DNA from: Patescibacteria group bacterium
Lineage (GTDB): Bacteria; Patescibacteriota; Patescibacteriia; Patescibacteriales; UBA12465
Direction: 5' to 3'
Length of the DNA stretch: 64,000 nt
NCBI GenBank assembly: GCA_041651355.1
Contig: JBAZJK010000001.1
Coordinates: forward strand, 101,883-165,882
A model generated the notes under the pieces. It worked only from the letters and a program-made list of their open reading frames with translations. It was not told where the DNA came from and did not search any database. Positions 40,400 through 60,631 of the stretch are shown here, piece by piece; the first letter of the stretch is position 1; every line of letters begins with the position of its first letter. A program made the translations under genes and the position numbers.

Positions 40400-40821
40400 A
40401 CCAGCGCAAGCCGATAATCTTATACATCTTTTTAGGCCTGATAATCTTAGGCGGCGTTTTGTTGTTTTTCTTGCGTTCCTGGGCCTTCGATCTGATTAGC
40501 AATAGCAGCCTGCGGGGATTAAACGATATTTTAAATACCCCGGTCCGGACGAACGCTCAACAGGCTCTTGATCTAAGCTTGTTGCAAGATAAGCGTTTTA
40601 TGAATTTGAAGAACCAAGTGGTTAATTTTGATTATGATAATTTCGGCCAGGTAGGAAGCGCTAATGACGTTATCGTTACCGATTTGGAACAGCCTAGGCC
40701 TGAAGAAATAGCCAGCACGACCGCCGGGGAAGAGGTCGCTTCCAGTTCTAAGCCTGCTCAGACGGTTAAGATCAGGGTCGACATCGGCAATAATAATCTA
40801 TTCTTGAAAAAAACTAAGTAA
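40396..40821 (+). CDS. bitopic hypothetical protein in the pilus operon
   Basis: 141 aa with an N-terminal TM helix, translationally coupled to the pilO-like gene. Confidence 0.5.
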   Translation: MNQRKPIILYIFLGLIILGGVLLFFLRSWAFDLISNSSLRGLNDILNTPVRTNAQQALDLSLLQDKRFMNLKNQVVNFDYDNFGQVGSANDVIVTDLEQPRPEEIASTTAGEEVASSSKPAQTVKIRVDIGNNNLFLKKTK

Positions 40822-40828
40822 AAATGAC

Positions 40829-42583
40829 ATGGACAAGAGGGAACAGCTCTTAAATTTATTAGTCCAGAAACAGATAATTAATCTGATCCAAGCCGGAGAT
40901 ATCATGAAAAGCGTCCAGGCCAACAAGAAGGACCTGGCTGATTTTTTAATAGAAGAGAAGATAATAGATGAAGAGCAATTGACCCAGGTGAAAGCGGAAA
41001 TGTATAATCTCCCTTATTTTTTAGTCCAAGACGAATCTATCCCAGAAGGCATCCTTAATTTTTTACCGGAAGAAATCGCTAGGAATTATAACATCATCTG
41101 TTTAGCTAAGGATAAGAAGCTAGTTAAGATCGGCTTGGTCGATCCCGATCCTCGGGCCATGGAAGCCGTCAACTTCCTAGCTAGCGATGAAAAGCTGAAG
41201 GTGGAATACTGCCTGATTTCCCGGACCAGCTGGGATAAGGTTTTTAAGCAATATCAGAAGATAGAAGAAGAAATTTCTTCCGCTTTGGAACTTAAGGCTA
41301 AGGAAGAAGGGGATGAATTAGTCCAAGTCAAGACCGAGTCTGAGAGTTTGGGTGACGATGATATTAACAGTGCGCCGGTTTCCCGTATCGTTTCTGTGGT
41401 TATCCGCCATGCTGTCGAGGCTCGGGCGAGCGATATCCACATTGAACCTTTCGGGAACGAAAGCCGCGTCCGCTATCGTATCGACGGTATTTTGCATACC
41501 TCCTTAACTCTGCCCAAGAGCATCCATAACGCTATTATCGCTCGCGTCAAGGTTTTGGCTAAATTGAAATTAGATGAAACCCGGGTGCCTCAGGATGGCC
41601 GCATCCGGCTGCTGATTAATAATCGGGAAATCGATTTTCGTATTTCTACCCTGCCTTTAGCCAGCCAAGAAAAAGTGGTGATGAGAATCTTGGATACGGT
41701 GAAGGGCGCTCCAACCTTGGAAGATTTGGGTTTTAATAAGATCGCCTTAAATTCGATTCTAGAGGGAATCAAAAAAACCAATGGCATTTTCCTGGTTACT
41801 GGTCCGACCGGTTCAGGTAAGACTACTACTTTATACGCCCTCATGAATATCTTGAATAAGGAAGGGGTAAATATCTCCACCTTGGAAGACCCAGTCGAAT
41901 ACGAACTTAAAGGCGTTAACCAGTCCCAAATCAGGCCTAAGATAGGTTTCAGTTTTGCTAATGGCTTGCGCTCTCTTTTGCGCCAAGATCCCAATATCAT
42001 CATGGTGGGAGAAATCCGCGATGAAGAGACCGCCGAATTATCTATTCACGCTTCTTTAACTGGTCACTTAGTCTTATCCACCTTGCATACCAATGATGCT
42101 ATCGGTTCTATCTTCCGTCTATTAGATATGAAAATCGAGCACTTCCTATTGGCTTCCACCTTAAAGACCGTCGTCGCCCAACGTCTAGCTCGCCGCCTCT
42201 GTCCGAATTGCCGCCAGGCTTTCAAGCCTGAAGCCGAGATGTTGGATATCATTATTAAAGAATTTGGCGATTTACCGGAAAATCTAATTAAAGCTGAATA
42301 TCCAGAATTCACTACCTTGGATGCTCTGCGGAACGTTTCTTTCTATAAGGAGGTCGGTTGCAGTCATTGTGAAAACACGGGCTTTTCTGGTAGAATTGCG
42401 ATTGCCGAAGTTATCGCTATTAATGAAACTTTGAAAGAGATGATTAATAATAATGATAAGAATCTTAATATTGGGGCGGTTAAGAAGAGTCAGGATTTTA
42501 TTTCTATCAAACAGGATGGATTCTTTAAAGTTATTCAAGGAGTCACCACTATGGCTGAGGTCTTAAGAGTAATCGAGAGTTAA
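40829..42583 (+). CDS. pilB: type IV pilus assembly ATPase PilB (GspE family)
   Basis: GSPII_E N-terminal domain, Walker A GPTGSGKTT, Asp/His boxes and a tetracysteine CPNC...CSHC. Confidence 0.92.
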   Translation: MDKREQLLNLLVQKQIINLIQAGDIMKSVQANKKDLADFLIEEKIIDEEQLTQVKAEMYNLPYFLVQDESIPEGILNFLPEEIARNYNIICLAKDKKLVKIGLVDPDPRAMEAVNFLASDEKLKVEYCLISRTSWDKVFKQYQKIEEEISSALELKAKEEGDELVQVKTESESLGDDDINSAPVSRIVSVVIRHAVEARASDIHIEPFGNESRVRYRIDGILHTSLTLPKSIHNAIIARVKVLAKLKLDETRVPQDGRIRLLINNREIDFRISTLPLASQEKVVMRILDTVKGAPTLEDLGFNKIALNSILEGIKKTNGIFLVTGPTGSGKTTTLYALMNILNKEGVNISTLEDPVEYELKGVNQSQIRPKIGFSFANGLRSLLRQDPNIIMVGEIRDEETAELSIHASLTGHLVLSTLHTNDAIGSIFRLLDMKIEHFLLASTLKTVVAQRLARRLCPNCRQAFKPEAEMLDIIIKEFGDLPENLIKAEYPEFTTLDALRNVSFYKEVGCSHCENTGFSGRIAIAEVIAINETLKEMINNNDKNLNIGAVKKSQDFISIKQDGFFKVIQGVTTMAEVLRVIES

Positions 42584-42603
42584 TTTAGCTTAGTTTTCAT
42601 CAT

Positions 42604-43809
42604 ATGCCAATCTATCAATATAAAGCTGAAGCCAAGAACGGAAAAATCCGGACAGGCAAGATTGTTGGTCTCAACGAGAAAGAGGTCGAATTTAAACTAC
42701 GTAAACAGGAGCTAAACTTAATCAGCTTGATCGAAGCTAGCCAGTCGCCCATGGTAAAGTTGTCTCTGCTAATCCAGAGGGTGAAGCCTAAGGATTTAGT
42801 TATTTTTTCTCGGCAATTTTCCGTGATGATCAGCGCTAATATGCCGGTCGTAGAATCGCTAATGATCTTAGTGGACCAGACTAATAATTTCCCTTTGAAG
42901 AGCATTATCGCCGACATCGCTCTTGATGTTGATAGCGGCTCGCTCTTATCTGATGCTTTTGCTAAGCGGCCGAAGATCTTTTCTGAATTCTTCGTCAATA
43001 TTATCAAATCTGGAGAAACTTCAGGTAAATTAGATGAAGTCTTGAATTATTTGGCCGATGAGATGGAAAAGAACTATGATATGGTTTCCAAGATCAGGGG
43101 CGCCATGATTTATCCGCTTTTTATTATCTGCGGTTTGATCGGAGTCGGCATCATCTTGATGATTTATGTTATTCCTAACCTAACCGCGATTCTGACTGAA
43201 ACTGATATTGCTTTGCCCTGGTCAACGCGGGCGGTCATCGGTTTGTCTAATTTTTTGCGTCATTTCTCTTGGCTGGTTGTCCTCATCGTCGCCGGTTTTA
43301 TATTTTTGATGCGTTTGTATCTGAAGACTACCGGTGGTCGTCGGAATTTTGATCTTTTAAAAATCAAGCTGCCGATTTTTGGCAAGCTGTTCAAGTATAT
43401 TTATCTGATGCGCTTCACCCGCTCGCTCAGCACCTTGCTCAAAGGCGGCGTAACGATTACTAAGAGTTTGGAGATTACGGCTGATGTCGTCCGAAATGAG
43501 ATCTATCGGGAACTCATCATGCAGACTTTGCAATCGATCAAAGACGGTAACCCCTTGGCCACCGTCTTCGATTCCAGCGATTATGTACCGAAGATGGTGC
43601 CACAGATGATTTCGGTCGGTGAACGCAGCGGTAAGATGGAAGTAGTCTTGGATAAGATTTCTGATTTCTATACGCGCGAATCCACTAATATGTTAAATAG
43701 CTTGAGCACGATCATGGAGCCCTTGATCATGGTGATTATGGGTATCGGTGTGGCCATCATGGTCGCGGCCGTCTTGTTGCCGATGTATAATCTCGGACAA
43801 CAGTTCTAA
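42604..43809 (+). CDS. pilC: type IV pilus platform protein PilC (GspF family)
   Basis: 401 aa with two T2SSF repeats and 3 TM segments. Confidence 0.9.
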   Translation: MPIYQYKAEAKNGKIRTGKIVGLNEKEVEFKLRKQELNLISLIEASQSPMVKLSLLIQRVKPKDLVIFSRQFSVMISANMPVVESLMILVDQTNNFPLKSIIADIALDVDSGSLLSDAFAKRPKIFSEFFVNIIKSGETSGKLDEVLNYLADEMEKNYDMVSKIRGAMIYPLFIICGLIGVGIILMIYVIPNLTAILTETDIALPWSTRAVIGLSNFLRHFSWLVVLIVAGFIFLMRLYLKTTGGRRNFDLLKIKLPIFGKLFKYIYLMRFTRSLSTLLKGGVTITKSLEITADVVRNEIYRELIMQTLQSIKDGNPLATVFDSSDYVPKMVPQMISVGERSGKMEVVLDKISDFYTRESTNMLNSLSTIMEPLIMVIMGIGVAIMVAAVLLPMYNLGQQF

Positions 43810-46399: not shown

Positions 46400-46870
46400 A
46401 TGACCGAAATCATCAATTTTACTAAGAATAAGCTGCAACAGAAAAAGATAGCGGCGGCTGTCGATCTTTTTTTATTTTCCTATCGCAAGGCAGATTTTTT
46501 GGTGTCGGTAGTCTTGGTAGGGGATCGCCGGATGCAGAGTTTGAACCGTAAATACCGGGGCCAGAATAAAAGCACGGATGTCCTGTCCTTCCGCCAGGAG
46601 GAATACATGGGTAATATCTTGGGGGAGATATTTATCAATTTACAGGAAGCGGCTCGGGTCAGGAAATTCCAGGGATTATTAGAAGAACTAAAATGTAAAG
46701 ATATTAATTTCCGCCATACCAAAGATTTCATTTTTTATTTCCTTTTGACTCACGGCTTGCTGCATCTTATCGGTTATAATGACGATAGCCCCAAGGAACG
46801 CCAGCTCATGTTAGACTTGGGGAAAAAATTCATGCATAAATTGGCGGGATGTGGTATAATTAAACTATGA
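46400..46870 (+). CDS. ybeY: rRNA maturation endoribonuclease YbeY
   Basis: Zn-binding signature HGLLHLIGYNDD. 156 aa. Confidence 0.8.
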   Translation: MTEIINFTKNKLQQKKIAAAVDLFLFSYRKADFLVSVVLVGDRRMQSLNRKYRGQNKSTDVLSFRQEEYMGNILGEIFINLQEAARVRKFQGLLEELKCKDINFRHTKDFIFYFLLTHGLLHLIGYNDDSPKERQLMLDLGKKFMHKLAGCGIIKL

Positions 46871-49800
46871 GAAAAAAGCCATCTATGGCTAGGATTAAAA
46901 TATCCCATCAACTAAAAAAACACTTACACAAATCAACTCATCACCACCTCTTGAGGGAGTTTTTGATTATCCTGATTTTGACCTTGTTGGCTACTTCTGG
47001 CTGGTTGCCGATTACTTTTTTAGAAACAAAAGATGGCCAGGCTTTAAACCAGGTAAATAATTGGGCTTTCACCGGAGCATCGACTGGCTGGACTGCAGGT
47101 AATGGTACAGGAACCAATACTTGTGGCGATGATAATTCAGCCACAACTTATGCTTTTGCTACTTTTGCTTATTACGCTAATGATTTCCGGGCCGTTACTG
47201 GCACCACCGTTGGTCGCGACTATCGTGGCCATATCAGACAGACCTTTGTGGCCCCTGGGTCAGGCGATGTTAAAGTCAAAGGACGTTTTAAATATACGAC
47301 GAGCGCGACTTCGTGGACCAGTGCTAGCGGCTGGGCTCGTTTAGATATCTATGATGCTGCCAACTCTACTTTTATAGGTTCTCTAGGTTGTGTCACCTTC
47401 AGCTCTTCACTCACTAACCAATATTCTGCCTATGCTAGCGATGTGACTTTAACTGGTGGCACTACGTATACTGTCAGAGTGACGATGAAGGCGACACGTG
47501 GCTCCTTGTCTAACGTGACCGTTAGAGTAGATGAAGTTGTCGTTAATGCCGCCCCTGTCGGTGTAACAGCTAGTGCGCCAGCTGATACGACTAATGCAGC
47601 TTTAGATTGGACAGCTAGTACTGGCGGCAGCAGTTCCAATGCTTTGCATGGCACGACTCCCTATAAAGTTTATCGCAACACGGCTTCTCCGGTTACGACC
47701 AGTAATTTTTTAGCAAATTCGACCACTGATTCCTATACTGACTCCAGCACTAGTCCTAGGGTGACTTATTATTACGCCGTTACTAACTATGACACCGGTT
47801 CATATGAATCACCCCTATCAGCCGAGGTGTCTGTAAAGACCCGGCCGGCTACTCCGGGGGCTATCAGTTTTTCAAGTGTTACTTCTAATTCAATGCGGGT
47901 TAGCTGGTCGGCTCCTTCAGCCGGAGCTGATAGCTATAAGGTGGAAAGGTGTGAAGGAACCGGCTGCAGTAGTTACGGGGAAATTGCCACCGGCGTTACA
48001 AATACTTATTACGATGACTCTGGTTTGAGTAGCGGCACGGTTTATCGTTATCGTATCAGGGCAACAGATAGCGTTAGCGGTGATGGCGCTTATAATACTC
48101 CAGCCGAGCAAGCGACAACCGCGGCCGCTCCGACAGCGACCACCCAGACTGCCTCCAGTATTAATTACAACGCTGCCACCGGTAACGGCACGGTCACGGC
48201 CACTGGCGGAGAAAATCCTACTCGTTATATCCAATGGGGCACGACTGTCTCATACGGTAGTTCTTGCAGTGCCGGAAGCGGCGGTACCGGCGCTTATAGT
48301 TGCGCTATCAGCAGTTTAAGTCCTAATACTCTCTACCATGTCCGCGCCTATGCCACTAACAGCGGCGGCACGGGTTATGGCAATGATTCAACTTTTACAA
48401 CTTTACCTGGTACCACTAGTTTGCCAGGGACTCCTATTTCTAACGTTGGCGCAACCGCTATGCGCTTTACTTGGACCGCCCCTTCAGGTGGAGCTGATAG
48501 CTATAAAGTGGAAAGATGCCAGGGGACGAGCTGTAGTGATTTTTCTCAGATTGCGTCCGGCGTTACCAATACCTATTATGATGATTCTAGTCTAACTGGT
48601 AATACTATTTATCGCTATCGAGCTCGGGCAACGAATACGACCGGCGATGGCGCCTATTCCAATGCCACTAGCGATCAGCTAACCTACCCGGACGTTCCAA
48701 CTAGCATTACTTTCTCTGATGTCACTACCAGTTCAATGCGTGTTAATTGGTCGGCTCCTGCCGGCGGAGCGGCGAGTTATAAAGTGGAAAGATGTCAGGG
48801 AACAGGGTGCAGTGATTTTTCCCAGATTGCCACTGGTGTTACAAATACTTATTACGATGACTCTGGCTTAAGTGCCGATACGGTGTACCGTTATCGCATG
48901 AAAGGCACTAATTCGGTGGGTGACGGTTCTTATGCTACCGCTGCCGAAAGATTAACTAGCGGTTCTGGTGGAGTCACTTCAGAAAACAATATCCGGGGCA
49001 ATGCTTATAATGCCACCTATGGCAAGATCTCTTTTAACTGTCTTGATGATGGCACCGGCGGCCATTTTCCCTATACCTTTCCTTTTCCTTTCTCCACTGA
49101 ACCCTGTAATCCAAATACTCACGGAGTCAATTTAGATGAAAGCAATAATTTTGCCGGCGAGGCTTGGAATGCGACTTTAGGCTTGATTACTTTTAATGCC
49201 ACGACTACGCCGCCTGATAATTATGCTTTTAATACTAATTGTCCGAATACTTGTAATTTGGCCAATAATTGTTGGGCTTGCTATAACGAAAATGACCAAA
49301 AGATGTATGGTTGGGCCAGGGTGATTAATGGTGGGCAATGGATACAATTCAATAGCAGTCTGGCGCCTCAGTCCAGTATGAATAATTATCTTTCCCCGAA
49401 TCCCGGCATCTTTAGCGGTTATGCTTCCAGCTCCTTCGGCTCTATCAGCTTGAATTGTATCAACGATAATTCTTGTTTAAGCGATGATTATAAAGTCTAT
49501 CGCTGGCCGATAGAGATTAGACAATTAAGTGCGCCTAATTGGGCTTTCTCTGAGGCTTGTTCCAGCGGTGCCCGGCAAGCGGTGCTCAAATGGTATGTAA
49601 ATAGCGGCTCGCAAAGCGCTTATCAGGTAATTATCAATAATGCTAATAACACGACTAGTCCGATCTATGATTCCGGCAAGACAAGCGGTTCGGCTAAGCA
49701 GTTTATCTGCGATGGCGGCGCCTGTTCCTTGGATTATGACGAACACTATTATTTCTGGTTGCGCCTCTGGGACGAAAGCTACACAGCTACGCCGACTCCT

Positions 49801-50253
49801 TGGCGGCAATTCAATACTAGTGCTGGCGATGTTTTGACTGATAATGTAGCCGCAAACAGCAGTAGCCAGAACCCAACCCTAACCTTTACGACCTATAAGC
49901 ATGAATTCCCGATGCCTTATTTCTCTTGGAGTCCTTTTGATGTGATCGTCGGCAGTACCACTAGTTTCACTAATTCTTCCCAGTATTATAACAGCACTTA
50001 TCCTAACTATAATCCTCAGGTCTGTTCCGCCGGCACCTGCTATTACCTTTGGACAACGACCGACACCGGAGCGATGATTGCTAGTAACACGGCGGCGACT
50101 ACCAGTATTGTATTCACCAAAGCCACTGGCACCAGGGTATACTTAAAGACGACTGATGCGGATAATTATTTCTGCAGTACCTCCACCCTGTTGAACGTTA
50201 ACTTCTTGTTACCGACCTGGAAGGAAGTCAAGGCGACCTCGACCGGTAATTAA
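46867..50253 (+). CDS. giant membrane-anchored surface protein with FN3 repeats
   Basis: 1128 aa with an N-terminal TM helix. Three or more FN3 modules share (A/G)(D/A)SYKVERCxGTxCSxFxQIAxGVTNTYYDDSxLxxxTxYRYR. The C-terminal half has repeated G.A.N...G.I.FN motifs. Confidence 0.8.
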   Translation: MRKKPSMARIKISHQLKKHLHKSTHHHLLREFLIILILTLLATSGWLPITFLETKDGQALNQVNNWAFTGASTGWTAGNGTGTNTCGDDNSATTYAFATFAYYANDFRAVTGTTVGRDYRGHIRQTFVAPGSGDVKVKGRFKYTTSATSWTSASGWARLDIYDAANSTFIGSLGCVTFSSSLTNQYSAYASDVTLTGGTTYTVRVTMKATRGSLSNVTVRVDEVVVNAAPVGVTASAPADTTNAALDWTASTGGSSSNALHGTTPYKVYRNTASPVTTSNFLANSTTDSYTDSSTSPRVTYYYAVTNYDTGSYESPLSAEVSVKTRPATPGAISFSSVTSNSMRVSWSAPSAGADSYKVERCEGTGCSSYGEIATGVTNTYYDDSGLSSGTVYRYRIRATDSVSGDGAYNTPAEQATTAAAPTATTQTASSINYNAATGNGTVTATGGENPTRYIQWGTTVSYGSSCSAGSGGTGAYSCAISSLSPNTLYHVRAYATNSGGTGYGNDSTFTTLPGTTSLPGTPISNVGATAMRFTWTAPSGGADSYKVERCQGTSCSDFSQIASGVTNTYYDDSSLTGNTIYRYRARATNTTGDGAYSNATSDQLTYPDVPTSITFSDVTTSSMRVNWSAPAGGAASYKVERCQGTGCSDFSQIATGVTNTYYDDSGLSADTVYRYRMKGTNSVGDGSYATAAERLTSGSGGVTSENNIRGNAYNATYGKISFNCLDDGTGGHFPYTFPFPFSTEPCNPNTHGVNLDESNNFAGEAWNATLGLITFNATTTPPDNYAFNTNCPNTCNLANNCWACYNENDQKMYGWARVINGGQWIQFNSSLAPQSSMNNYLSPNPGIFSGYASSSFGSISLNCINDNSCLSDDYKVYRWPIEIRQLSAPNWAFSEACSSGARQAVLKWYVNSGSQSAYQVIINNANNTTSPIYDSGKTSGSAKQFICDGGACSLDYDEHYYFWLRLWDESYTATPTPWRQFNTSAGDVLTDNVAANSSSQNPTLTFTTYKHEFPMPYFSWSPFDVIVGSTTSFTNSSQYYNSTYPNYNPQVCSAGTCYYLWTTTDTGAMIASNTAATTSIVFTKATGTRVYLKTTDADNYFCSTSTLLNVNFLLPTWKEVKATSTGN

Positions 50254-50272: not shown

Positions 50273-50881
50273 ATGTTTCCAAGAGTCTCTAAATATTGTC
50301 GCCTCTTCTTGGCGACATCTTTAAAAGTAAATTCCAAGCCGCGTCGTCTGCCCGGCTTTTCTTTGCCGGAAGTAATTGTCAGCTTATCGATTATCGTCAT
50401 GATTACGGCGATATTTCTCAGTAATTATCGCGATGCAGAGAAGAGAAGCGATTTAAGCATGAGCGCCCAGAATCTCGTGAGTGATATTCATTTAACCCAG
50501 AGTTATGCCTTGGGCTTGGCTGAGTATGCCGGTGAAGTGCCCAGCGGCGGCTGGGGGCTACACTTTGACAGTGCGACCTCGAGTGCTGATCGTTATATTA
50601 TTTTTGCCGATACTAACGCTAACCAGCGCTATGACGTGGGCGAAGAGGACCCAAACAGCGGCGGTCGGACAATCTATTTTTCTAAAACTACCAGAATCAA
50701 GGGTTTTACTGGAGTAACCAGCCCCTTAGATATTACTTTTTTGCCACCCGACCCCATCACTACCATCTATGGCGGGAGCGGGACTTCGACCGTGGTTGAT
50801 ATCATTCTGACAGAAATAGTTAATAATACGGAAAAATCTGTCCAGGTGAACTTTTTAGGTTTAGCCGAAGCTTTAGATTAG
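50273..50881 (+). CDS. minor (pseudo)pilin
   Basis: Prepilin-type motif LPG|FSLPEVIVSLSIIVMITAIFL. The leader as drawn is unusually long, so the true start may be downstream or non-ATG. Confidence 0.65.
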   Translation: MFPRVSKYCRLFLATSLKVNSKPRRLPGFSLPEVIVSLSIIVMITAIFLSNYRDAEKRSDLSMSAQNLVSDIHLTQSYALGLAEYAGEVPSGGWGLHFDSATSSADRYIIFADTNANQRYDVGEEDPNSGGRTIYFSKTTRIKGFTGVTSPLDITFLPPDPITTIYGGSGTSTVVDIILTEIVNNTEKSVQVNFLGLAEALD

Positions 50882-50887
50882 ATATTT

Positions 50888-51409
50888 ATGAAGCGCTTAC
50901 TTTCCAAATTCCCAATATCCAAGCCCGGCTTTTCTCTCTTAGAGGTAATTACCGTCTTGTTCATTATTTCCATCGGCATGATCGGGACCATGTCTCTTAT
51001 CGTCCAGAATATTCAGACAGAACAGGCTAATCGCGGCAATCTTATTGCTTGCCAATTAGCTCAAGAGGGCTTGGAGCTTATCAGGAAGACCCGGGATAAT
51101 AATTGGCTAGTGCCTCAGGATTGGCTGACTGATTTAAGCGACGGGACTTATAAGATGGATTATTCGATGGCCACCCCCACGTCGATTACAACGATTGATG
51201 AAGGCGTTTTGTTACTAGAAAATGGCTTTTATCGCCATTATGCGCCGGCCGAAGGCGAGAACGTCAATCTCGAGACTGATTTTTACCGGGTTTTGACCCT
51301 GCAATCTTTAAGTGAAGTCAGCGAACAAGTCCAGTCGGCCGTTACTTGGTCTAATCGGGGCCGCGAATATAATTGTACTTTAATGACTATCCTATATGAT
51401 TGGCGTTAG
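50888..51409 (+). CDS. minor (pseudo)pilin
   Basis: KPG|FSLLEVITVLFIISIGMIG prepilin N-terminus. Confidence 0.7.
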   Translation: MKRLLSKFPISKPGFSLLEVITVLFIISIGMIGTMSLIVQNIQTEQANRGNLIACQLAQEGLELIRKTRDNNWLVPQDWLTDLSDGTYKMDYSMATPTSITTIDEGVLLLENGFYRHYAPAEGENVNLETDFYRVLTLQSLSEVSEQVQSAVTWSNRGREYNCTLMTILYDWR

Positions 51410-51971
51410 TTTTTTTAAAAAAGCAGAAAATAAGTCCGGATTTACTTTGGTCGAAGTTCTAGTGGCCACCACGATTTTTGTCGTCATTATGCTGTCGGCT
51501 ACCAGCATCTTTAAATATGCTTTAGAGGGTCAGAAGAAGAGCTTGATGTCGCAGAACGTCCAAGAAAGCTTGCGTTACTTTTTGGAGGTTATCGGCAAGG
51601 AAATCAGGATGGCTCAGCGCGATAACGGGGTTTGTACGAGTACGCCCGATACCCAGATATTTGCTTCCAGCACTAATGCTTTCGGTGATGTCTTGGAGTT
51701 TAAAAATTACCATGGCCAGTGCGTCCGTTATTATTTGTTTGGCGCTGGAGATTTCACTCGTTTTACCGTCAAGCGCGATACCGCCATCGAGTTTATCTCT
51801 CCCTTGTCAGTTGATGTTTCGGATTTGAGGTTTTTGGTCGAGGAAGAGGAGGGCAAGCAAGCGTTCGTGACGGTCAGCTTCAAGGGTGAGGCAGTGACTC
51901 CGTCTGGGGGTAGGGCAGAGGCGATCAATGTCCAAACCTCCATTGTTTCCCGCTATTACCCCCTAGATTAA
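51396..51971 (+). CDS. minor (pseudo)pilin
   Basis: NKSG|FTLVEVLVATTIFVVIM prepilin N-terminus. It overlaps the previous gene by 14 nt. Confidence 0.7.
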   Translation: MIGVSFFKKAENKSGFTLVEVLVATTIFVVIMLSATSIFKYALEGQKKSLMSQNVQESLRYFLEVIGKEIRMAQRDNGVCTSTPDTQIFASSTNAFGDVLEFKNYHGQCVRYYLFGAGDFTRFTVKRDTAIEFISPLSVDVSDLRFLVEEEEGKQAFVTVSFKGEAVTPSGGRAEAINVQTSIVSRYYPLD

Positions 51972-51975
51972 GTTT

Positions 51976-52353
51976 ATGTGGCAGAATCTGAAAAAATTCG
52001 TTGATTTCAATCATCCGGGCAGCGCCTTGCTTTTGTCTCTCTTTATATTGACCAGTATCGTCGTGGTTGCTTTCTCCGGGGCAAGCGGGGTCTTGTCTAA
52101 CGTCAAGATCAGCGGGGCTGTTACCCGGTCTTTTCGTGCCTATTTCGCGGCTGAGGCCGGAGCTGAGAGGCTTTTGTTCGAGGTGCGCCATAACGAGTAT
52201 GATTTGGGGGTTTATTCTGGGAACAACATCTTCTCTGACACCTTAAGTAATGCCGCTACTTATCGGGTAGATTATAAATCTTTTGCCCCGACTATTTTTT
52301 CTTCGGTTGGATCTTTCGACAAGGTAAGGCGGAGCGTGGAAATAAGCTTCTAA
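51976..52353 (+). CDS. PilX-like minor pilin candidate (no Glu+5)
   Basis: 125 aa with an N-terminal hydrophobic helix GSALLLSLFILTSIVVVAF. It is the last gene of the minor-pilin set. Confidence 0.5.
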   Translation: MWQNLKKFVDFNHPGSALLLSLFILTSIVVVAFSGASGVLSNVKISGAVTRSFRAYFAAEAGAERLLFEVRHNEYDLGVYSGNNIFSDTLSNAATYRVDYKSFAPTIFSSVGSFDKVRRSVEISF

Positions 52354-52449
52354 GGCCTTCCCATATATTTGAAAAATTGGTATAATTAAAATATCAAGAG
52401 CAAGTCAAGTTTTATTAAATTTTTTTAATTAGCAGACTTGCCCAAGCCT

Positions 52450-55400
52450 ATGAAAACATGGCTCAAAAATATCCCCTCTTTAAAGCTAATAAGCCTAGTC
52501 GGTTTTTTTATTTTTGCTTTTGCATTGATATCAGCTGATTCGGCCCAAGCCCTATCCGGGGATTACAATAAAGCGACTAATGGGATTTTAGCTAACACGG
52601 ATTGGAACAACCTGCCTAACGATTTTTTACCTTTAAGTGGCGGTTGGTTGAGCGGCAATCTAGCTATCGGGACTAGCAGCACTTCTACTTATGCCCTAAA
52701 CGTTAACGGCACTATCAATGCCACCACCTTTATCGGCAGTCTGACTGGTTCGGTTAGCGCGGCCAATGTCTCTAACGGAGCTTTTGGTTCTAACGTTGGT
52801 GGCGGTCTTTATAGCTTCCCGTCTAACGTCGGGATCGGGACGACGAATCCGGGGTACGCTTTAGAAGTAAACGGGGTTATTTATACTTCCGGATCAAATT
52901 ATGTTTCCGGCAACTCTATTATTGGTCGTTCTAGCGTACAATCTCCTCTATTTTTTAACACAACGGACGCTAATACTATTATTACTACTAGAACAGCGAC
53001 AAAAGATATAGTGTTGAATTTAAATCAGGGCGCAGGAACGGAAATCATGAGACTTACTTCGAGTGGCAACGTCGGAGTCGGCGTAACCAATCCAAGCTAT
53101 AAGTTGCAAGTATCACAGTCTACAGACACTTCTTTGTATGTGGAAAGGACCGGCGCTAATGCTTCTGCCGGGATTGTCAAGGCAGGGGACGGTCTAGTAA
53201 CCATCGGGGCAAATACTTTTGATCCTTTGCAATTGGTGGTCAATGCTAATCCGGTCATGTATTTAACGACTGGAGCTAACGTCGGCATCGGTACCACCTC
53301 TCCAGCTTATAAATTAGATGTTTCTGGTGGCCAAATTAATTCTTCTGGCGGCCTATGTATCGCTGGCGATTGTAAGACCGCCTGGTCACAGGTTAGCGGT
53401 ATTAGTTATTGGACACTTAATGGTTCTACTTTATACGCCTCTAATACCGCTTGGAATATTGGGATCGGGACGACCAGCCCAACTTATAAACTGTCTATCG
53501 GCACCGATGGTAGCTTCAATAAAAATCAGGGATTATTTTTTGATAATTCGGTTGGCATTTATCGTATTGCGAGCACTCAATTAGGGATTGGTAACGGAAC
53601 TGGTGATGTTATCATTGAGGCTGGCGGCGTACTCAGAACAGCAAATAACTATCGTTTAACTGCAAGCAATGCAGCGGCGGCGCCAACTTATACTTTTAAC
53701 ACAGATGTAGATACGGGTATTTTTAATCCAGCAGCTAATTCTATTGCCATTTCCGCTAGCGGGACCGAAGCGATGCGGATTATTGCTGGTGGTAATGTCG
53801 GCATCGGCACCACTAATCCATTAGCTAATCTTGAGATTTTGGCCTCTTCTTCAGCCAGGGTAAACCTGAAAGGACTTGATTCTGGCAAAAATGCCGGCAT
53901 CTATTTAGGCATGTCGTCCAGGGAGTGGAAGATGGAGCAGTTGGCTTACAATACTTATGGCAATAATCTCTATGATTTTGAAATAAAATATGTCGGCACG
54001 CAATATGGCGGTAATTTGTTATTTAATCCGGCCGGCAATGTCGGCATCGGGACAACCAACCCAACCTCTGCTCGTTTAGTCGTGACGGGAGACTCTACCT
54101 ATAATATTGATGCTGGGAGCATGAAAATCGCCAACGTGGCTCCAGGATCAACGTCTACTGATGCAGTGAATAGGAATCAATTGGATTCAGCAATAGCTGG
54201 TATTTCATATTGGGATGTTAATGGGTCAAATATTTATGCTTCTAACACTTCTTGGAATGTCGGTATCGGTACCACCTCTCCAGCTTATAAATTAGATGTT
54301 TCTGGTGGCCAAATTAATTCTTCTGGCGGCCTATGTATCGCTGGCGATTGTAAGACCGCCTGGTCACAGGTTAGTGGAACTAGTTATTGGGGTCTAAATG
54401 GAAGCAATTTATATGCTTCTTCAACGGCTTATAATGTCGGAATCGGGACGACTAACCCGAATCATAAATTGGAAGTAAATGTTACTTCTGTAAATGATAA
54501 TAATTTTCTTTCTTTAATAAATAATGCCGGTTGGACTTCAGGTAAATATAACAACGTAGTCTGGAGAGATTCTACAAATATAACAGGTGCGCTCGGTTTA
54601 GTATATAATTCAGGTTCTGCCACCGTAGATTTTACTGTTAATTCCTTGTATAACGGTGCCTATAAAACCACCGCCTATGTCCCCTTTATAATCAAGGGTA
54701 GTGGCAACGTCGGCATCGGCACCACCACTCCAAATTCGCCTTTGCATGTTGTAGGAGCAGCTGGTTCTTTCGGACAACTTAACATTGATTCTACCTCTAC
54801 CGCTAACCAGTCTAATTTCGCTATTTCTAAGGGTGGTTTGAGATATTGGGCGATTTATACGCCTGGTGAAAATTCAGATTTTAGGTTCTACGCTGATCCG
54901 GCTAGAAGCGGCGGCGTGGGCGATATTATGACTTTGGCTAACACGGGCAAGGTGGCGATTGGGACTACAACTATGACCTCAGCTCAGTTATCTGTTAATT
55001 ACGTTGGTGGTTCCGGCGCTTCAATTGATGCTGGTAATTCAAGGGTGCAAAATTTATCTACCGCTACTGATCCTAAAGATGCTATATCATATGGCCAGGC
55101 TACATCTACTATGTGGGGCATATTAGCCTCTCCGATGATAGCAAATTTTGATTTAAATAATCATGATATCATTAATGTCAATAAGTTGACTGTTAACACT
55201 ATCGATCCTTTGTATAATATCCGAGGGACAAAATACTCTACTTACGCCGCCTCTATCGCTGGCGGGGTCAAGGAAGAATATGTGGGCAATCTCAGGATAG
55301 ACACCTATCATGCTGGTTTTGGCTATGAAAAAGTTTTAGATTTTTCAAAGATTGAAGCTGGTGATGACCTCTGGGTCTGGCGTAATGTGGTAGATTTTGG

Positions 55401-55602
55401 TCCTGATAACGTCCAGGTTTTCATTACTCCGTTTGGTAGTTTCGCTCAGACATATTATTTAGTGAAAGATAATAAGATAGTCTTCCGGAGCGATAAGCCG
55501 GTTTCAGTTTCATATCGCTTGATTGGTAAGCGTTTTGACTGGAAGTCTTGGCCGACCAAAGCTCTTAATCAGACAGAGAGGGCTGGTTTAGTGATCGATT
55601 AA
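52450..55602 (+). CDS. giant secreted fibre-like repeat protein
   Basis: The track ORF starts at TTG 52438. ATG 52450 gives MKTWLKN... with a signal peptide ...DSAQA. There are about 10 copies of the N(V/I)GIGTT.P...L.V motif. Confidence 0.8.
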   Translation: MKTWLKNIPSLKLISLVGFFIFAFALISADSAQALSGDYNKATNGILANTDWNNLPNDFLPLSGGWLSGNLAIGTSSTSTYALNVNGTINATTFIGSLTGSVSAANVSNGAFGSNVGGGLYSFPSNVGIGTTNPGYALEVNGVIYTSGSNYVSGNSIIGRSSVQSPLFFNTTDANTIITTRTATKDIVLNLNQGAGTEIMRLTSSGNVGVGVTNPSYKLQVSQSTDTSLYVERTGANASAGIVKAGDGLVTIGANTFDPLQLVVNANPVMYLTTGANVGIGTTSPAYKLDVSGGQINSSGGLCIAGDCKTAWSQVSGISYWTLNGSTLYASNTAWNIGIGTTSPTYKLSIGTDGSFNKNQGLFFDNSVGIYRIASTQLGIGNGTGDVIIEAGGVLRTANNYRLTASNAAAAPTYTFNTDVDTGIFNPAANSIAISASGTEAMRIIAGGNVGIGTTNPLANLEILASSSARVNLKGLDSGKNAGIYLGMSSREWKMEQLAYNTYGNNLYDFEIKYVGTQYGGNLLFNPAGNVGIGTTNPTSARLVVTGDSTYNIDAGSMKIANVAPGSTSTDAVNRNQLDSAIAGISYWDVNGSNIYASNTSWNVGIGTTSPAYKLDVSGGQINSSGGLCIAGDCKTAWSQVSGTSYWGLNGSNLYASSTAYNVGIGTTNPNHKLEVNVTSVNDNNFLSLINNAGWTSGKYNNVVWRDSTNITGALGLVYNSGSATVDFTVNSLYNGAYKTTAYVPFIIKGSGNVGIGTTTPNSPLHVVGAAGSFGQLNIDSTSTANQSNFAISKGGLRYWAIYTPGENSDFRFYADPARSGGVGDIMTLANTGKVAIGTTTMTSAQLSVNYVGGSGASIDAGNSRVQNLSTATDPKDAISYGQATSTMWGILASPMIANFDLNNHDIINVNKLTVNTIDPLYNIRGTKYSTYAASIAGGVKEEYVGNLRIDTYHAGFGYEKVLDFSKIEAGDDLWVWRNVVDFGPDNVQVFITPFGSFAQTYYLVKDNKIVFRSDKPVSVSYRLIGKRFDWKSWPTKALNQTERAGLVID
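53287..53396 (+). repeat. 110-bp perfect direct repeat, copy 1 (inside the fibre-like gene)
   Basis: atcggtaccacctctccagc...cctggtcacaggttag is identical to 54265-54374. It encodes IGTTSPAYKLDVSGGQINSSGGLCIAGDCKTAWSQVS. Confidence 0.9.
54265..54374 (+). repeat. 110-bp perfect direct repeat, copy 2
   Basis: Identical to 53287-53396, offset by 978 bp (in frame, 326 codons). Confidence 0.9.
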
Positions 55603-55670: not shown

Positions 55671-56324
55671 ATGGATAAATTCACAACTGAGCCAAATTCC
55701 AAAAAAATTTGGATCTTATTGGGCCTAGTAGTGGTTATAATCATCATTACTGTAATCGCGGCTATGCCTAAGCAAAAAAAAGAGGCAACAACTCCTGCTC
55801 CTAAGCCAGCGGCCACCTCTATCAATGATACTGCGGCTAAGAGCCAGGTGGAAATTGCTCAGGAAAGCGTTGCAGCCTTGAAGGACGCCGCTCAAGTAGT
55901 GCCAAACAGTATTAATTTAGTCACTAAGGATAATAAAGTGGTTAACCTTCAGGGTGAGGTGGTTAGGACTGATCTGCCTTTAACCTCTCCGCAAGCTCCG
56001 CAACAGACCGGCCCTCTTAATAAAGAAGAATTGTCCGCCAAAGTCATTAAACTTGATATGAGTTTAGAGAAGGGAATCAGTCCGGCAGAATTCACGGTTT
56101 CTAAGGGAGCACCGATTTCCATTGCTGTCAGCTCAATTGACCAGTGGACTCATATTTTCCGCTTTGAGGATAAATCCTTATCTTCTGTGGCCATCGGAGT
56201 TTCTACTGGAGAAACCAGAGCCATGACTTTCAATGCTCCGACTAAGGCAGGGGAATATAAGTTCTATTGCGATTTACCTAGCCATGCTAGCCGAGGCGAA
56301 GTTGGTAAAATGATCGTCAAATAA
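55671..56324 (+). CDS. membrane-anchored cupredoxin-fold protein
   Basis: N-terminal TM helix. The C-terminal domain has WTHIFRFED and GEYKFYCDLPSHASRGEVGKMIV, a Cupredoxin_1-like His...Cys..His...Met arrangement with altered spacing. Confidence 0.6.
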   Translation: MDKFTTEPNSKKIWILLGLVVVIIIITVIAAMPKQKKEATTPAPKPAATSINDTAAKSQVEIAQESVAALKDAAQVVPNSINLVTKDNKVVNLQGEVVRTDLPLTSPQAPQQTGPLNKEELSAKVIKLDMSLEKGISPAEFTVSKGAPISIAVSSIDQWTHIFRFEDKSLSSVAIGVSTGETRAMTFNAPTKAGEYKFYCDLPSHASRGEVGKMIVK

Positions 56325-56334: not shown

Positions 56335-58500
56335 ATGAAAAATCCTAATAAAAAAATCTTAATTTCCCTGTCTATTGCTTGTCTTTTAGGATTATTCGCC
56401 TACCTCTCGCCCACCCTGGCTAAGGTCATAAACTTTGGTACTGGTAGTGATACTTCCTACTTTCCCGGTAATATTGGCGTGGGCGCAACCACTACTGATA
56501 AATTAAACGTTAGCGGTACTTTAAGAGTCACTGGGACAACCACCTTAGCCGCCTATACTGGCCAAGGCAACCAGTGCCTTTATGTGGATAACGGCGGTAT
56601 CGTCAGGATGCTGGGCAGCCAATGCGGTTCAGCAACCGGCGGCGATAATCTAGGTAATCATACCGCAACCCAAAACCTTAATTTAGCAGCTAACGCTTTA
56701 GTAGGTAACGGCGGCAGTACTGGTATTACGATTTCTAGCGGTGGAGCGGTAAGCGTTGCTAATGGTCTGACTTTGACTTCTGGAACTCTATCTTTGCCTA
56801 ATAACGCAGTCACTGATGCTATGGTCTCTGACACTCTAACTGCTTCTAACCTAGTATCCGGTAGTGCAGTCGTTTCGGATGCGGAGGTGGATAATAATAT
56901 AACCGTTACTAGCGGCACGATTGGCAGTAATAACGTTTCTTCCGCTTCTACTTGGACAACTTTAGGCACGTTGACGATTGGTGATAATGGTGATGCAGTT
57001 TTGATGTCAGCCACTAATTGGGATGTTGATTCTTCTGGCAATATCTTTGCTAATGGTGGATTTTCCACGTATGACACAACAGTGACTGATAACTATATCG
57101 AAGCCGGAGGCTTTTGTATGGGCAATGGCACCAACTGCATTACCTCTTGGACTAATGCTGGCGGCAACGTTAACGCTTCTTCGCCGACCGCTAATTATGT
57201 CACTAAATTTTCTGACAGCGATACGATTGCTAATTCACAGATTTTTGATAATGGTTCTGGAGTTGGCATCGGCACCACCACTGTTTCCTCGGCTCGCTTA
57301 GTGGTTGATAGCGCCTCAACATATAGCATTGATGCTGGGGGTAAGCCAATGATTAATGTAGGTATATCCGCTGATCCCACCGCTTCTGTTAATAGGAATT
57401 ATGTAGATTCAGCTATAGCCGGTATTAGTGGCGGCGGTGGTTACTGGATGACGACTGGTAGTGCTATCTATGCTACAAGTACCATGACCAGTGTCGGTGT
57501 TGGTACAACCTCTCCAACCGCTCCTTTTGAGGTCTATGGCGGTTTCTATATGGGTGGCGGTAGTGGCGATGTTGATAATAATGGATATGTTAATTCCATC
57601 GACGCCTTGATCGCTGCTCAATTTGCTCATAATTTAACTAGCTTAACTCCTTTGCAACAGGCCATGGCTGATGTCGATGGTGACGGCATGGTAACTGATT
57701 TTGATGCTAAGAACATCATGAAAAGGTTTGTAAATATTTATAGTAGTCGTAATCAGATGAATACAGAAAGTCGGAGACTCAAAGCTCTCGGGCTTAATTT
57801 TGACGGTAGCGGACAAGTAATGATTGGTTATAGCGATTATTCTAATGAGGTGTATATGCGCGATCGTTTTACCGTTTTTGGCACATCTTTAATGGACACA
57901 ACAGCGACCAGCACCTTTAATCCCTCTAATAGCACCTCAAGTGCCTTGATGCTCACCGGCCCTTATGGCGGAGGCTTGATATTCAAAGACACCGCTTATG
58001 GTGGCCTTTGGATGTCTGATAGCGGCCAGACTTTGAATTTTGCCTCTAATGGCAGTGGTAGCGGTTTCGGTAGCACTTACGGCCAAATGGTTTTAAAGAA
58101 TGGTAACGTCGGCATTAGCACTACTAATCCAACCAGGCCATTGCATGTTGTCGGTAACGTCCAGGTAGATTCTGGTTCCGTAACCGCTGATGCTTTCTAC
58201 TATAATTCTGACCGGACTTTGAAGAAGGATATTAAGCCGATATATGGAGCTTTAGCTAAAGTTTTGAACTTACAGGGTGTCTCCTTTAAATGGCGCGATA
58301 GCGGGGAAGCCAACTATGGCTTTATCGCTCAAGATGTAGAAAAAGTGTTACCAGAGTTAGTGGAAACCGGAGTCGATGGCAAGAAATCTGTCGCCTATGG
58401 TAATTTCACTGCCATATTAGTAGAAGCTCTTAAAACTCAGCAAAAGGAAATTGATTCTCTACAGGCTAGGGTTAAGTCCTTGGAAAGCAGCCTAAAATAG
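56335..58500 (+). CDS. secreted fibre-like protein with dockerin-like repeats and C-terminal S74 intramolecular-chaperone domain
   Basis: Signal peptide and GIGTT-type motifs. A dockerin-like pair is present (GDVDNNGYVNSIDALIAAQ and ADVDGDGMVTDFDAKNIMKRF). The C-terminus SDRTLKKDIKPI...GFIAQDVEKVLPELV...VAYGNFTAILVEALK matches the Peptidase_S74 pattern. Confidence 0.8.
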   Translation: MKNPNKKILISLSIACLLGLFAYLSPTLAKVINFGTGSDTSYFPGNIGVGATTTDKLNVSGTLRVTGTTTLAAYTGQGNQCLYVDNGGIVRMLGSQCGSATGGDNLGNHTATQNLNLAANALVGNGGSTGITISSGGAVSVANGLTLTSGTLSLPNNAVTDAMVSDTLTASNLVSGSAVVSDAEVDNNITVTSGTIGSNNVSSASTWTTLGTLTIGDNGDAVLMSATNWDVDSSGNIFANGGFSTYDTTVTDNYIEAGGFCMGNGTNCITSWTNAGGNVNASSPTANYVTKFSDSDTIANSQIFDNGSGVGIGTTTVSSARLVVDSASTYSIDAGGKPMINVGISADPTASVNRNYVDSAIAGISGGGGYWMTTGSAIYATSTMTSVGVGTTSPTAPFEVYGGFYMGGGSGDVDNNGYVNSIDALIAAQFAHNLTSLTPLQQAMADVDGDGMVTDFDAKNIMKRFVNIYSSRNQMNTESRRLKALGLNFDGSGQVMIGYSDYSNEVYMRDRFTVFGTSLMDTTATSTFNPSNSTSSALMLTGPYGGGLIFKDTAYGGLWMSDSGQTLNFASNGSGSGFGSTYGQMVLKNGNVGISTTNPTRPLHVVGNVQVDSGSVTADAFYYNSDRTLKKDIKPIYGALAKVLNLQGVSFKWRDSGEANYGFIAQDVEKVLPELVETGVDGKKSVAYGNFTAILVEALKTQQKEIDSLQARVKSLESSLK

Positions 58501-58527: not shown

Positions 58528-59133
58528 ATGAAGACTAATCGGCCAATTTTTAATCAAAAGATGTTTCTGGCGATGGGAGTAGTTTTAGCTGTCTTCCTAA
58601 TTATTTTAGTGATCGTCGACATTTCTCGCCGGAGCGGGAAGGAAGCCGCCAAAAAAGTCTATCCAGAGACCACTGATAAGTCGACGGAGCTCGTTATTCC
58701 GGTTGGCCGGACCGAAACCGAACCCAGCCCATTCAGGGCAGAGGTGCCAGCCAATACGGTCGTGCCCGAGATGGATTCTGACCCCAAGAAGATAACGGAC
58801 AAAGAAATCGTGGTTCCGACTTATGTGGCGCCCGCCGCTCCAGGGATTGAAAGCAAGTTCCGGATTTTTGATATCAAGGGGGAGGATAACGCATATAACC
58901 CCAGCAAGATCATTGCCAGAGTCGGGGATACTGTTCATGTTAATTTTACCGCCGTTGATAAGGATTATGATATAATCTTTCCTGACTATAGCATGTCACA
59001 GCAAGCTAAGATGGGCCAGACCAAAGTTTTAGAGTTCCAGGCCTTGCAAGAAGGTGATTTCTTATACTATTGCCAAGCTTGCGGCGGACCTAATAGTACG
59101 GCTGTCGGCCATATAATCATCGTTAATAAATAG
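58528..59133 (+). CDS. membrane-anchored degenerate cupredoxin-fold protein
   Basis: N-terminal TM helix. The C-terminal domain resembles that of 55671..56324 (GDTVHVNFTAVDKDYDIIF, GDFLYYCQACGGPNSTAVGHIIIV) but lacks canonical copper-ligand spacing. Confidence 0.55.
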   Translation: MKTNRPIFNQKMFLAMGVVLAVFLIILVIVDISRRSGKEAAKKVYPETTDKSTELVIPVGRTETEPSPFRAEVPANTVVPEMDSDPKKITDKEIVVPTYVAPAAPGIESKFRIFDIKGEDNAYNPSKIIARVGDTVHVNFTAVDKDYDIIFPDYSMSQQAKMGQTKVLEFQALQEGDFLYYCQACGGPNSTAVGHIIIVNK

Positions 59134-59155: not shown

Positions 59156-60631
59156 ATGTTAAAAAAATCTACCATACCAATCAGCTTGATGTTGCTCAGT
59201 TTAGTGGTCTTTTCGATAGTCTCCATTAAGACCGCTTTGGCGGCCGGTTACGTCAATGTCACCAATGGCTATCAGATTCTGGTTAATCAGGGGATAGTAA
59301 ATTTAACCGCCCAGACCCGGAGCATTAATATCGACACTTCGAAGGTGACGACATCATTTTTTATCCCTACTAAGACTGTGGGCGAAGTAGATTCATATCT
59401 AGCTAGCCCTTTGCATACAGCCGTGCAGCAAGGGGGTGACACTACTCCGCCGACTTTCACCTTGGTTAGCCTAACCCCGACCCAGAACTATACTTATGCT
59501 AGTTTTTCTATTAATGAAAACGGGTATTATAAGTTTGCTCAAAGTACAAGCGGTTATCCTTCCGAGCCTGGCACGGCTTGGATGCCAATGACCGCTAATT
59601 CAAATTATCTTGTAAATATCGGCGGGCAGTATAACACCTTCTATTACTACCGTATATTCTATAAGGATGCGGCTGATAATTCTGGCGTTTATAGTGGTAC
59701 ACTGACCACGGCTTCTGACACTCAAGCCCCTAGTATAAGCATTTCTTACGGTCCGGCCCTGTCAAGTACGAATCCACCAGCCTATGAAATAAACTTTTAT
59801 ATGAATGAAAACGGCCAATACGGTTTTGCTTATAGTCCGAGTTCTTATCCAGATCCGGCCACTAACCAATCCGCAACTGCTTACCAGGTCTATAATCATC
59901 TAATTGGTGATCAGGCTAATACGGGTTATTATTATACAATAAAAGCTAAAGATGCTGCTGGTAATACTAGCACTCACCAGAATTATGTTGTAACAACTAG
60001 CGATACAACTGGACCAGTGTTATCTGAAATCACTGATTCTCCTGGGCATGATCCAGCGACCTTAATTAGTTTTATCTCTGATGAAGCCGGAGAATACCAG
60101 ATATTATATGCAGCCACTGAAGAAGATCTAATGAATATGGATGAACCAGTATCTTGGGAGACAATGTCTGCGGGCAATAATGGTAAAGAAATCGGTGATG
60201 AAACAGTGAATACTAATTTCTACTATATAATTTATGCTCGTGACACCTTGTTTAATACCAGTAACTCAGGGGTACTAACGGTAGGAAGTCCTGGTAGTGA
60301 TGATGGTAATCCTGATATTTCTATTGTCGGCCAAAGGCCTAGCGCCACTCCGCCAGCCATGGAGATACTGATTCAAAACGATGGCGCCGACGAAACTTTT
60401 TATCAACTTTTCTGGTCAATCGATCGTGAGTATATTAATACCTTGAAAGATATTGAACCAGCTAAAAATGGACAAGCCTTAGGTGCTCCTGGTAGATCTA
60501 TTACCGAATTGGTCGGTGACACCCCCTATACCCATTATTTCTATAGGATATTCACTCAGAATCCGCATAGACCGGAGACCATTAATTCTACTAATAGTTT
60601 AGAATTGGACACTGAAGGAGGCGCGGATTGA
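59156..60631 (+). CDS. secreted protein with four Ig-like repeats
   Basis: Signal peptide ...KTALA|AG. Four modules of about 95 aa each begin with D(T)T.P and contain a Y(Y)Y.I.A.D.AGN-type motif. Confidence 0.75.
   Translation: MLKKSTIPISLMLLSLVVFSIVSIKTALAAGYVNVTNGYQILVNQGIVNLTAQTRSINIDTSKVTTSFFIPTKTVGEVDSYLASPLHTAVQQGGDTTPPTFTLVSLTPTQNYTYASFSINENGYYKFAQSTSGYPSEPGTAWMPMTANSNYLVNIGGQYNTFYYYRIFYKDAADNSGVYSGTLTTASDTQAPSISISYGPALSSTNPPAYEINFYMNENGQYGFAYSPSSYPDPATNQSATAYQVYNHLIGDQANTGYYYTIKAKDAAGNTSTHQNYVVTTSDTTGPVLSEITDSPGHDPATLISFISDEAGEYQILYAATEEDLMNMDEPVSWETMSAGNNGKEIGDETVNTNFYYIIYARDTLFNTSNSGVLTVGSPGSDDGNPDISIVGQRPSATPPAMEILIQNDGADETFYQLFWSIDREYINTLKDIEPAKNGQALGAPGRSITELVGDTPYTHYFYRIFTQNPHRPETINSTNSLELDTEGGAD

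Follow-up and report, generated by a model that had tools for sequence, protein, structure and literature searches.

Why should a single bacterial gene contain two 110-bp segments that are identical at every base, and what kind of protein does such a gene encode? The question is raised by an open reading frame at 52450-55602 (+ strand, as are all its parts) of the window analysed here, by which we mean the whole 64-kb stretch of contig JBAZJK010000001.1 from a Patescibacteria group bacterium. The frame encodes 1050 amino acids (aa) from the ATG at 52450, the start used by NCBI, or 1054 aa from an alternative in-frame TTG start at 52438. Its product is identical to NCBI WC441_00775, a "hypothetical protein" on an 881,714-bp contig of a Patescibacteria group bacterium metagenome-assembled genome (MAG). 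We read this product as a Sec-secreted, all-β, modular surface fibre that resembles phage tail fibres and is related to the MAT fibres of Bdellovibrio, the 110-bp repeat as a recent intragenic gene conversion, and the conversion as part of a recombination regime that runs through the whole fibre family. We give this combined reading a probability of about 70%.

Conversion signature of the 110-bp repeat

Sequence comparison places the two perfect tracts at 53287-53396 (copy A) and 54265-54374 (copy B). They encode IGTTSPAYKLDVSGGQINSSGGLCIAGDCKTAWSQVS, lie 978 nt or 326 codons apart, and are flanked by a mismatch immediately at either end. Each is embedded in a larger unit consisting of a 59-aa two-cysteine module and the next GIGTT motif, at 53278-53493 (aa 281-352) for copy A and 54256-54471 (aa 607-678) for copy B, and across these 216 nt the copies are 85.6% identical overall. 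On the 3' side of the tracts similarity goes on for ~100 nt at ~70% identity, to 53493 and 54471; on the 5' side it ends after 9 nt. A preliminary description of this DNA had placed the reading frame, its recurring motifs and the perfect repeat, with its offset of 978, where we find them. Its further statement that the flanks of the repeat have diverged holds with a reservation: the 5' flanks are different module types, and the duplicated unit is the 59-aa module rather than a stretch of 978 bp.

The distribution of synonymous differences between the two copies is highly uneven. Inside the tract, 0 of 36 codons differ synonymously, against 14 of the 27 flank codons that specify the same amino acid (P about 4e-12), and in a permutation test with 31 mismatches in 216 nt an identical run of 110 nt was obtained with p <= 5e-6. 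The tract is bounded by synonymous differences on both sides. A sharp tract bounded in this manner is the signature of recent non-reciprocal exchange, that is, of gene conversion, and from the sequence we consider the 110-bp repeat best read as the result of a recent conversion within the gene, in which the two copies of the two-cysteine module took part. The very recent conversion that had been proposed for this repeat is thus borne out by the synonymous contrast and by the control that follows.

Could selection on the sequence itself, be it purifying selection, codon constraint or an RNA element, keep the two tracts identical? The amino acid sequence of the module (…GGLCIAGDCKTAWSQV…) is near-invariant across lineages of the family, where it is present in 42 of 120 homologues and in 82 copies, as would be expected if this were the case. 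Module copies with identical protein sequence nevertheless differ freely at synonymous sites elsewhere: in the relative P0006, which serves as a control, the module copies are identical over 37 aa, yet 25 of 67 same-amino-acid codons differ synonymously, and the module copies in L004 differ at many third positions. Protein conservation alone therefore does not yield DNA identity. Moreover, identity stops abruptly at synonymous differences on either side of the tract. Selection on the sequence is a hardly credible explanation.

A similar pattern is seen in the conversion of repeats in the streptococcal alpha C/Rib proteins, which likewise show a sharply bounded perfect tract amid diverged repeats and in-frame changes in copy number. 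The fibre gene differs from these in that the copies of its module are scattered between modules of other kinds instead of forming a uniform tandem array, and no silent donor cassettes were identified for it. A homologue search with the 68-aa module yielded just five short fragments. The 110-bp repeat is an ordinary conversion tract, and its chief use is as a time-stamp of an ongoing process.

Capping-loop motifs, shaft homology and the C-terminal domain

Nine copies of the strict motif N[VI]G[IV]G[TV] are spread through the fibre gene, starting at DNA positions 52825, 53068, 53278, 53455, 53794, 54037, 54256, 54433 and 54706. A further two, LAIGTS (52660) and VAIGTT (54952), are degenerate and bring the total to 11. 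Outside this reading frame, the strict motif is absent from the 64-kb window in each of the six frames. The spacing varies from 59 to 113 aa, and so the motif is recurrent but not strictly periodic; of the periodicity noted in the preliminary description, it is the recurrence that stands. We also weighed a super-repeat of four modules (spacings 81/70/59/113 and 81/73/59/91) but rejected it, since modules other than the two-cysteine module have no detectable DNA similarity and corresponding modules have differing nearest relatives; the two-cysteine module forms the sole similar pair.

What the motif stands for is indicated by homology of the shaft. A search of all PDB sequences with the single protein sequence returned only one match, 8OND (Bd2133 of Bdellovibrio bacteriovorus, E 0.003), in an alignment that sets NVGIGTTSPAYKLDV of the fibre against NVGIGATAPTAKLEV. 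A profile of 43 family members, searched against the PDB, matched only five Bdellovibrio MAT fibres: 8OND (1.9e-26), 8OML (6e-15), 8OJN (3e-10), 8ON4 (5e-9) and 8OL4 (8e-9). MATs are surface-displayed, intertwined trimeric β-helix fibres of ~1000 aa, in which the helix edges are marked by a recurring capping-loop motif, V-G-G/N-pi-x-x-P-x-x-x-L, and the C-termini carry an S74 chaperone or other tip domains (Caulton et al. 2024, PMC10769870). The GIGTT copies at the module edges align to the Bd2133 motif and match this definition; judged by sequence, GIGTTxPxxKL is the MAT capping-loop motif. The shaft would then be a string of heterogeneous β-rich modules, each closed by a capping-loop motif of the form (N)VGIGTTxPxxKLxV.

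Likeness to the MATs (Bd2133/8OND, Bd3182 and Bd1334; PMC10769870) goes beyond the profile match of 1.9e-26 and the capping loops. Both have a signal peptide and a length of ~1000 aa, both have a mosaic architecture with swapped parts, and in both, S74 and non-S74 C-termini are present within one genome. A life attached to other bacteria is likewise common to Bdellovibrio and, probably, to the present organism. The present family differs in its host phylum, the Patescibacteria, and in its linkage to minor pilins and a cupredoxin (see below), which is unreported for MATs. Among tail-fibre families of PHROGs, phrog_9942 (1e-26) and phrog_18345 (3e-15) match the fibre. Phage fibres and tailspikes (the S74 group of T5 pb1 and K1F endosialidase, R-type pyocins, cyanophage fibres) share with it these profiles, a GIGTxxP-type motif, a YadA-stalk-like "DAVNxxQLD" segment, a tip-like C-terminal domain and evolution by module exchange. 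The gene described here is by contrast chromosomal and cellular, is predicted to be Sec-secreted, has no virion module with it, and lacks S74.

The only Pfam match of the fibre protein is a marginal one, to YadA_stalk (PF05662), at 54124-54234 (aa 563-599; ...TDAVNRNQLDSAIAG...), with 29.9 bits against a cut-off of 28.4; the same short motif is present in phage fibres too. NCBIfam gave no match for the fibre protein or its neighbours. Trimeric autotransporter adhesins of the YadA/BadA/Vomp type, whose stalk modules recombine between repeats and so vary in length, resemble the fibre in this one match just above cut-off and in being repetitive. They differ from it in most other respects: by Pfam the fibre has no YadA_anchor β-barrel, its shaft is not a coiled coil, its C-terminus is a β-sandwich of the soluble type, and Patescibacteria lack a typical outer membrane.

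The two ends of the protein are distinct from the shaft. The N-terminus begins with a predicted Sec signal peptide at 52450-52551 (MKTWLKNIPSLKLISLVGFFIFAFALISADSAQA / LSG), read by eye from the translation, whose 34 residues comprise a basic n-region, a hydrophobic core and the AQA/LSG junction. It is followed by a conserved N-terminal region at 52552-52853 that ends at the first GIGTT motif and shares 84% aa identity with a syntenic ortholog. At the other end lies a C-terminal domain of ~139 aa (KLTVNTIDPLY...WPT..., aa ~916-1054, 55183-55599), delimited by AlphaFold and profile searches. AlphaFold, run with a 26-sequence alignment, predicts it as a compact β-sandwich with a predicted local distance difference test score (pLDDT) of 94-97. 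The domain is kept in many homologues of widely differing length and shaft, and its invariant residues include K-L-x-V-x-T-x-D-P-x-Y. We found no sequence relative of it in Pfam, NCBIfam or the PDB. By Foldseek, none of the PDB matches was better than E 0.06, the best being the fibre tips of pyocin R2 and cyanophage Pam1, and 13 matches at E <= 1e-3 were predicted C-termini of phage tail fibres. When the domain profile was searched against 1.84 billion representative proteins, at least 619 clusters (50% identity) were obtained at E <= 1e-30, always with the domain at the extreme C-terminus, in proteins of 177-3358 aa; the fibre, described earlier as "giant", lies at the short end of this family. 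Most of the species-level genomes that encode the domain belong to Patescibacteria lineages, and the family counts more than 2878 word-sharing homologues, likewise mostly from Patescibacteria. A Pfam search found no Peptidase_S74 chaperone in the fibre, and the conserved, independently folding β-sandwich domain ends the chain in its place.

From homology to the MATs, we infer that the fibre is probably a homotrimer, tens of nanometres long, that would be displayed on the cell surface. Cultivated Patescibacteria live as episymbionts, and the fibre may help the episymbiont to bind its host cell. Host-cell adhesion is probably its function, a suggestion based on homology to the prey-recognition fibres of Bdellovibrio, on the episymbiotic lifestyle, and on the finding that Saccharibacteria require additional close-range adhesins as well as pili (PMC12206443).

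Module exchange across the fibre family

Is the conversion an isolated event, or does the gene evolve in this manner more generally? A syntenic locus with the same gene order and about 80% nucleotide identity (L001, Logan SRR29243427) allows a direct comparison. The two loci align through the pilin genes and over residues 1-135 of the fibre, as far as 52853, just after the first GIGTT motif. From there to 54700 (variable cassette region, 52854-54700) the sequences are unalignable, except for one module at 54034-54275 that is bounded by two GIGTT motifs; they become alignable again from 54701, which coincides exactly with the GIGTT motif at aa 754. All break points thus lie at GIGTT-coding DNA, and it follows that the central 1.85 kb has been replaced and that the junctions are module boundaries. 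The ortholog in L001 lacks the two-cysteine module. Module by module, the nearest relatives of the fibre are seven different proteins, and N-termini differ among the Patescibacteria members of the family.

Internal repeats are widespread among the relatives. Of 120 homologues, 50 contain a stretch of 30 aa or more that recurs exactly within the protein. At the DNA level, the sole unbiased sample is a set of 43 fibre genes chosen by their C-terminal domain: in 7 of the 43, perfect internal repeats reach 100 bp or more, in 10 of the 43 they reach 50 bp or more, and all repeat offsets are multiples of three. L004-L006 have diverged repeats only. L003 (GCA_040757555.1, JBFLWN010000004.1) contains a perfect tandem duplication of 870 bp (290 codons) at gene coordinates 624-2529. 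Its middle repeat is a hybrid, R2-like at nt 1-91 and R1-like at nt 136-151, of module copies that are 82.5% identical; unequal crossing-over between two such diverged copies is expected to yield a repeat of this kind. We propose that the 110-bp tract of the fibre gene is one event of a family-wide regime in which modules are swapped, made uniform, duplicated or lost without a shift of frame, by recombination that joins them at or close to the conserved DNA encoding GIGTT, such that fibre length and composition vary over evolutionary time.

Alternatively, the repeat may be a device in its own right. The preliminary description had seen in it an in-frame deletion/duplication switch of 326 codons, which would mean that perfect repeats are maintained for RecA-mediated toggling of the 326-codon unit, in the manner of a contingency locus. 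The arithmetic of this proposal is sound, the offset being a multiple of three, and RecA recombination usually needs homology shorter than 110 bp. The relatives show that such events do occur: all ten of their perfect repeats of at least 50 bp are in frame, and L003 has a completed tandem duplication. In-frame offsets are expected anyway, however, because recombinants shifted out of frame would be eliminated. Such repeats are present in only about 1 in 6 relatives, with varying position and module, which fits sporadic conversion and not a conserved device, and neither a recombinase nor an invertase gene lies near the fibre gene. No alternative allele was found either: an exact 50-mer of the tract had 0 matches in the metagenome_contigs and genome_contigs collections, in which the source genome is likewise not matched, and the two assembly records of the locus are identical. 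Nor is there a mark of regulation that would set the repeat apart from ordinary turnover. We consider a programmed length switch improbable. With the repeat read as a conversion tract, deletion or duplication of the 326-codon unit is still plausible, as the two perfect tracts could now mediate it; this capacity would be an accident of homology, not a dedicated switch.

Several points weigh against the reading proposed here. Firstly, the full-length AlphaFold model of the monomer is poor in the shaft, with a mean pLDDT of 52, as is expected if the protein is an obligate intertwined trimer. The fibre-like character claimed for it earlier is consequently upheld by homology (the MAT profile at 1.9e-26, the PHROGs matches at 1e-26 and the capping loop) and not by fold prediction, and the trimeric β-helix fold is one that we infer from sequence homology. 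In a Foldseek search with this low-confidence model the top 13 matches were led by MAT fibres, at large root-mean-square deviation and in part driven by sequence; as support, such matches are weak. Secondly, the conserved end of the present family is the C-terminus, whereas Bdellovibrio MATs conserve the N-terminus and vary at the tips, a β-rich N-terminal domain of ~130 aa being common to all of them (PMC10769870). The polarity of the fibre and the role of its tip may thus differ from those of MATs. Thirdly, the longest DNA repeats, namely the duplication in L003 and the perfect repeats of 359 bp at a spacing of 924 bp (L007), 158 bp at 1902 bp (L008) and 239 bp at 2391 bp (L009), come from loci that were picked for their long protein repeats. 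Finally, the two tracts might truly differ and have been made identical, or been misjoined, by the assembler. The sequence derives from a short-read metagenome assembly, in which repeats are error-prone, and the two available records may stem from the same reads. These records, the NCBI MAG contig and the ENA MEGAHIT contig k141_956022, nonetheless agree without a difference over 7153 bp. The name k141 implies a final k-mer longer than the 110-bp repeat, so that single k-mers bridge it; both copies sit in unique in-frame flanks; and similar perfect repeats are present in independent assemblies of relatives. Given the identical ENA contig and a repeat shorter than the k-mer, we judge mis-assembly to be unlikely, and strongly so.

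The pilin and cupredoxin neighbourhood

The fibre gene lies at the downstream end of a type IV pilus locus. The gene order is PilM, PilB and PilC (38029-43809), a 1128-aa fn3 protein, four pilin-like genes, the fibre, a cupredoxin, a second fibre and a second cupredoxin. The four minor-pilin-like genes (202, 173, 191 and 125 aa; 50273-52353, +) include three with an N_methyl motif, and the last is PilX_N-like. A promoter-like site, TTCCCA-17-TATAAT with a TG extension, is found at 52358-52386 (+), in the 96-bp gap 5' of the fibre gene; identified by consensus match only, it is the top-scoring such match within 44-61.5 kb. Downstream of the fibre follow the cupredoxin partner (55671-56324, +; Pfam Cupredoxin_1, 1.7e-9), which is transmembrane-anchored and has a His/Cys/His/Met ligand set, a 721-aa fibre paralogue with dockerin and a Peptidase_S74 chaperone (56335-58500, +; Pfam and PHROGs), and, directly after it, the second cupredoxin-like gene (58528-59133, +; Pfam). 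The fibre may be expressed together with the minor pilins and the membrane-anchored cupredoxin partner. In having a non-pilin gene directly after four pilin-like genes the arrangement recalls type IV pilus tip adhesins of the PilY1/PilC kind, from which the fibre differs in that Pfam finds no PilY1/Neisseria_PilC domain in it.

This neighbourhood also bears on whether the gene might be the tail fibre of a prophage or tailocin, that is, a receptor-binding protein of viral origin that has been taken up into the chromosome. The PHROGs tail-fibre matches, the S74 chaperone of the adjoining paralogue and the resemblance of the C-terminal domain to phage fibre tips would all fit such an origin. Capsid, terminase, tail-tube, baseplate and integrase genes are absent among the neighbours of the fibre gene, however, and its flanks are pilus and housekeeping genes, the window as a whole being ordinary bacterial chromosome (RecG, ThrRS, YbeY, FemAB, LigA and a MacB/HlyD exporter). 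The fibre has a predicted Sec signal peptide, and the pilin-fibre-cupredoxin order is conserved in distant Patescibacteria. A viral fibre is very improbable on this evidence.

How general is the association of a cellular surface fibre with pilins and a cupredoxin? Minor pilins are located upstream of the fibre gene in three lineages, and the order is the same in L001, L004 and L006. Among species-level loci, 53 of 74 have a cupredoxin homologue on the same strand no more than 1.2 kb downstream, against 13 of 53 and 5 of 38 at control positions, and the fibre-cupredoxin pair is present in 8 of 9 loci that were inspected individually. The cupredoxins that follow fibres are small (170-245 aa), transmembrane-anchored Cupredoxin_1 proteins, and those encoded after fibres bearing the C-terminal domain have the ligand set of a type-1 copper site in common, ..H(I/V)F.. 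and F.CDVPGH...GE.G.M.V. The fibre-cupredoxin gene pair is the most interesting by-product of this analysis.

To our knowledge, little beyond type IV pili is known of how ultrasmall episymbiotic Patescibacteria recognise and hold their hosts. We found no paper in the literature linking Patescibacteria fibres with the MAT family or with cupredoxins. The C-terminal domain, the pairing with a cupredoxin and the linkage to pilins have not been described before, while the shaft is MAT- and phage-like and the perfect repeat is ordinary biology. The large size of the family, its homology to Bdellovibrio prey-recognition and phage receptor-binding fibres, its evolution by cassettes and its pairing with a cupredoxin qualify it as a concrete and testable candidate determinant of host specificity, and as a natural example of modular fibre engineering. 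Tentatively, one may go further and envisage in Patescibacteria an undescribed, widespread host-recognition apparatus, in which phage-like mosaic fibres would each be encoded with a membrane-anchored blue-copper cupredoxin partner, often behind minor pilins of the type IV system, and in which host range would be re-tuned by in-frame exchange and conversion at GIGTT boundaries; the fibres might be anchored or matured via the cupredoxin, or be presented by the pilus.

Several further observations concern neighbouring genes. The fibre paralogue at 56335-58500 contains GIGT-type motifs and a type I dockerin, and in comparison with L001 has a variable patch of its own at 57884-58101, which ends at GI(G/S)TT. 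In L003, L004, L005, L008 and L009, the fibre-cupredoxin pair is followed by a protein of ~500-550 aa that has no Pfam match, these proteins being 24-49% identical to one another; the 491-aa protein encoded at 59156-60631 of the window matches only its L001 counterpart and falls outside that group. The 1128-aa protein of the pilus operon (46867-50253) comprises three fn3 domains and a Rha78A-like immunoglobulin domain, and its fn3-coding DNA is internally repeated, as seen in cross-matches at 47862-48912 against L001.

Two observations were made elsewhere in the window. An islet of low GC content at 15849-20138 (0.32-0.35, vs about 0.44 elsewhere) encodes a C-5 cytosine methylase, an N6/N4 methylase and a protein with a Shedu SduA_C domain, and is probably a small defence island. 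Lastly, ARAGORN calls a tRNA-Ser(GCT) at 6019-6106 (+) inside a 569-aa open reading frame on the opposite strand, 5989-7698 (-); probably either the tRNA call or the reading frame is spurious, or the start of the frame is wrong.

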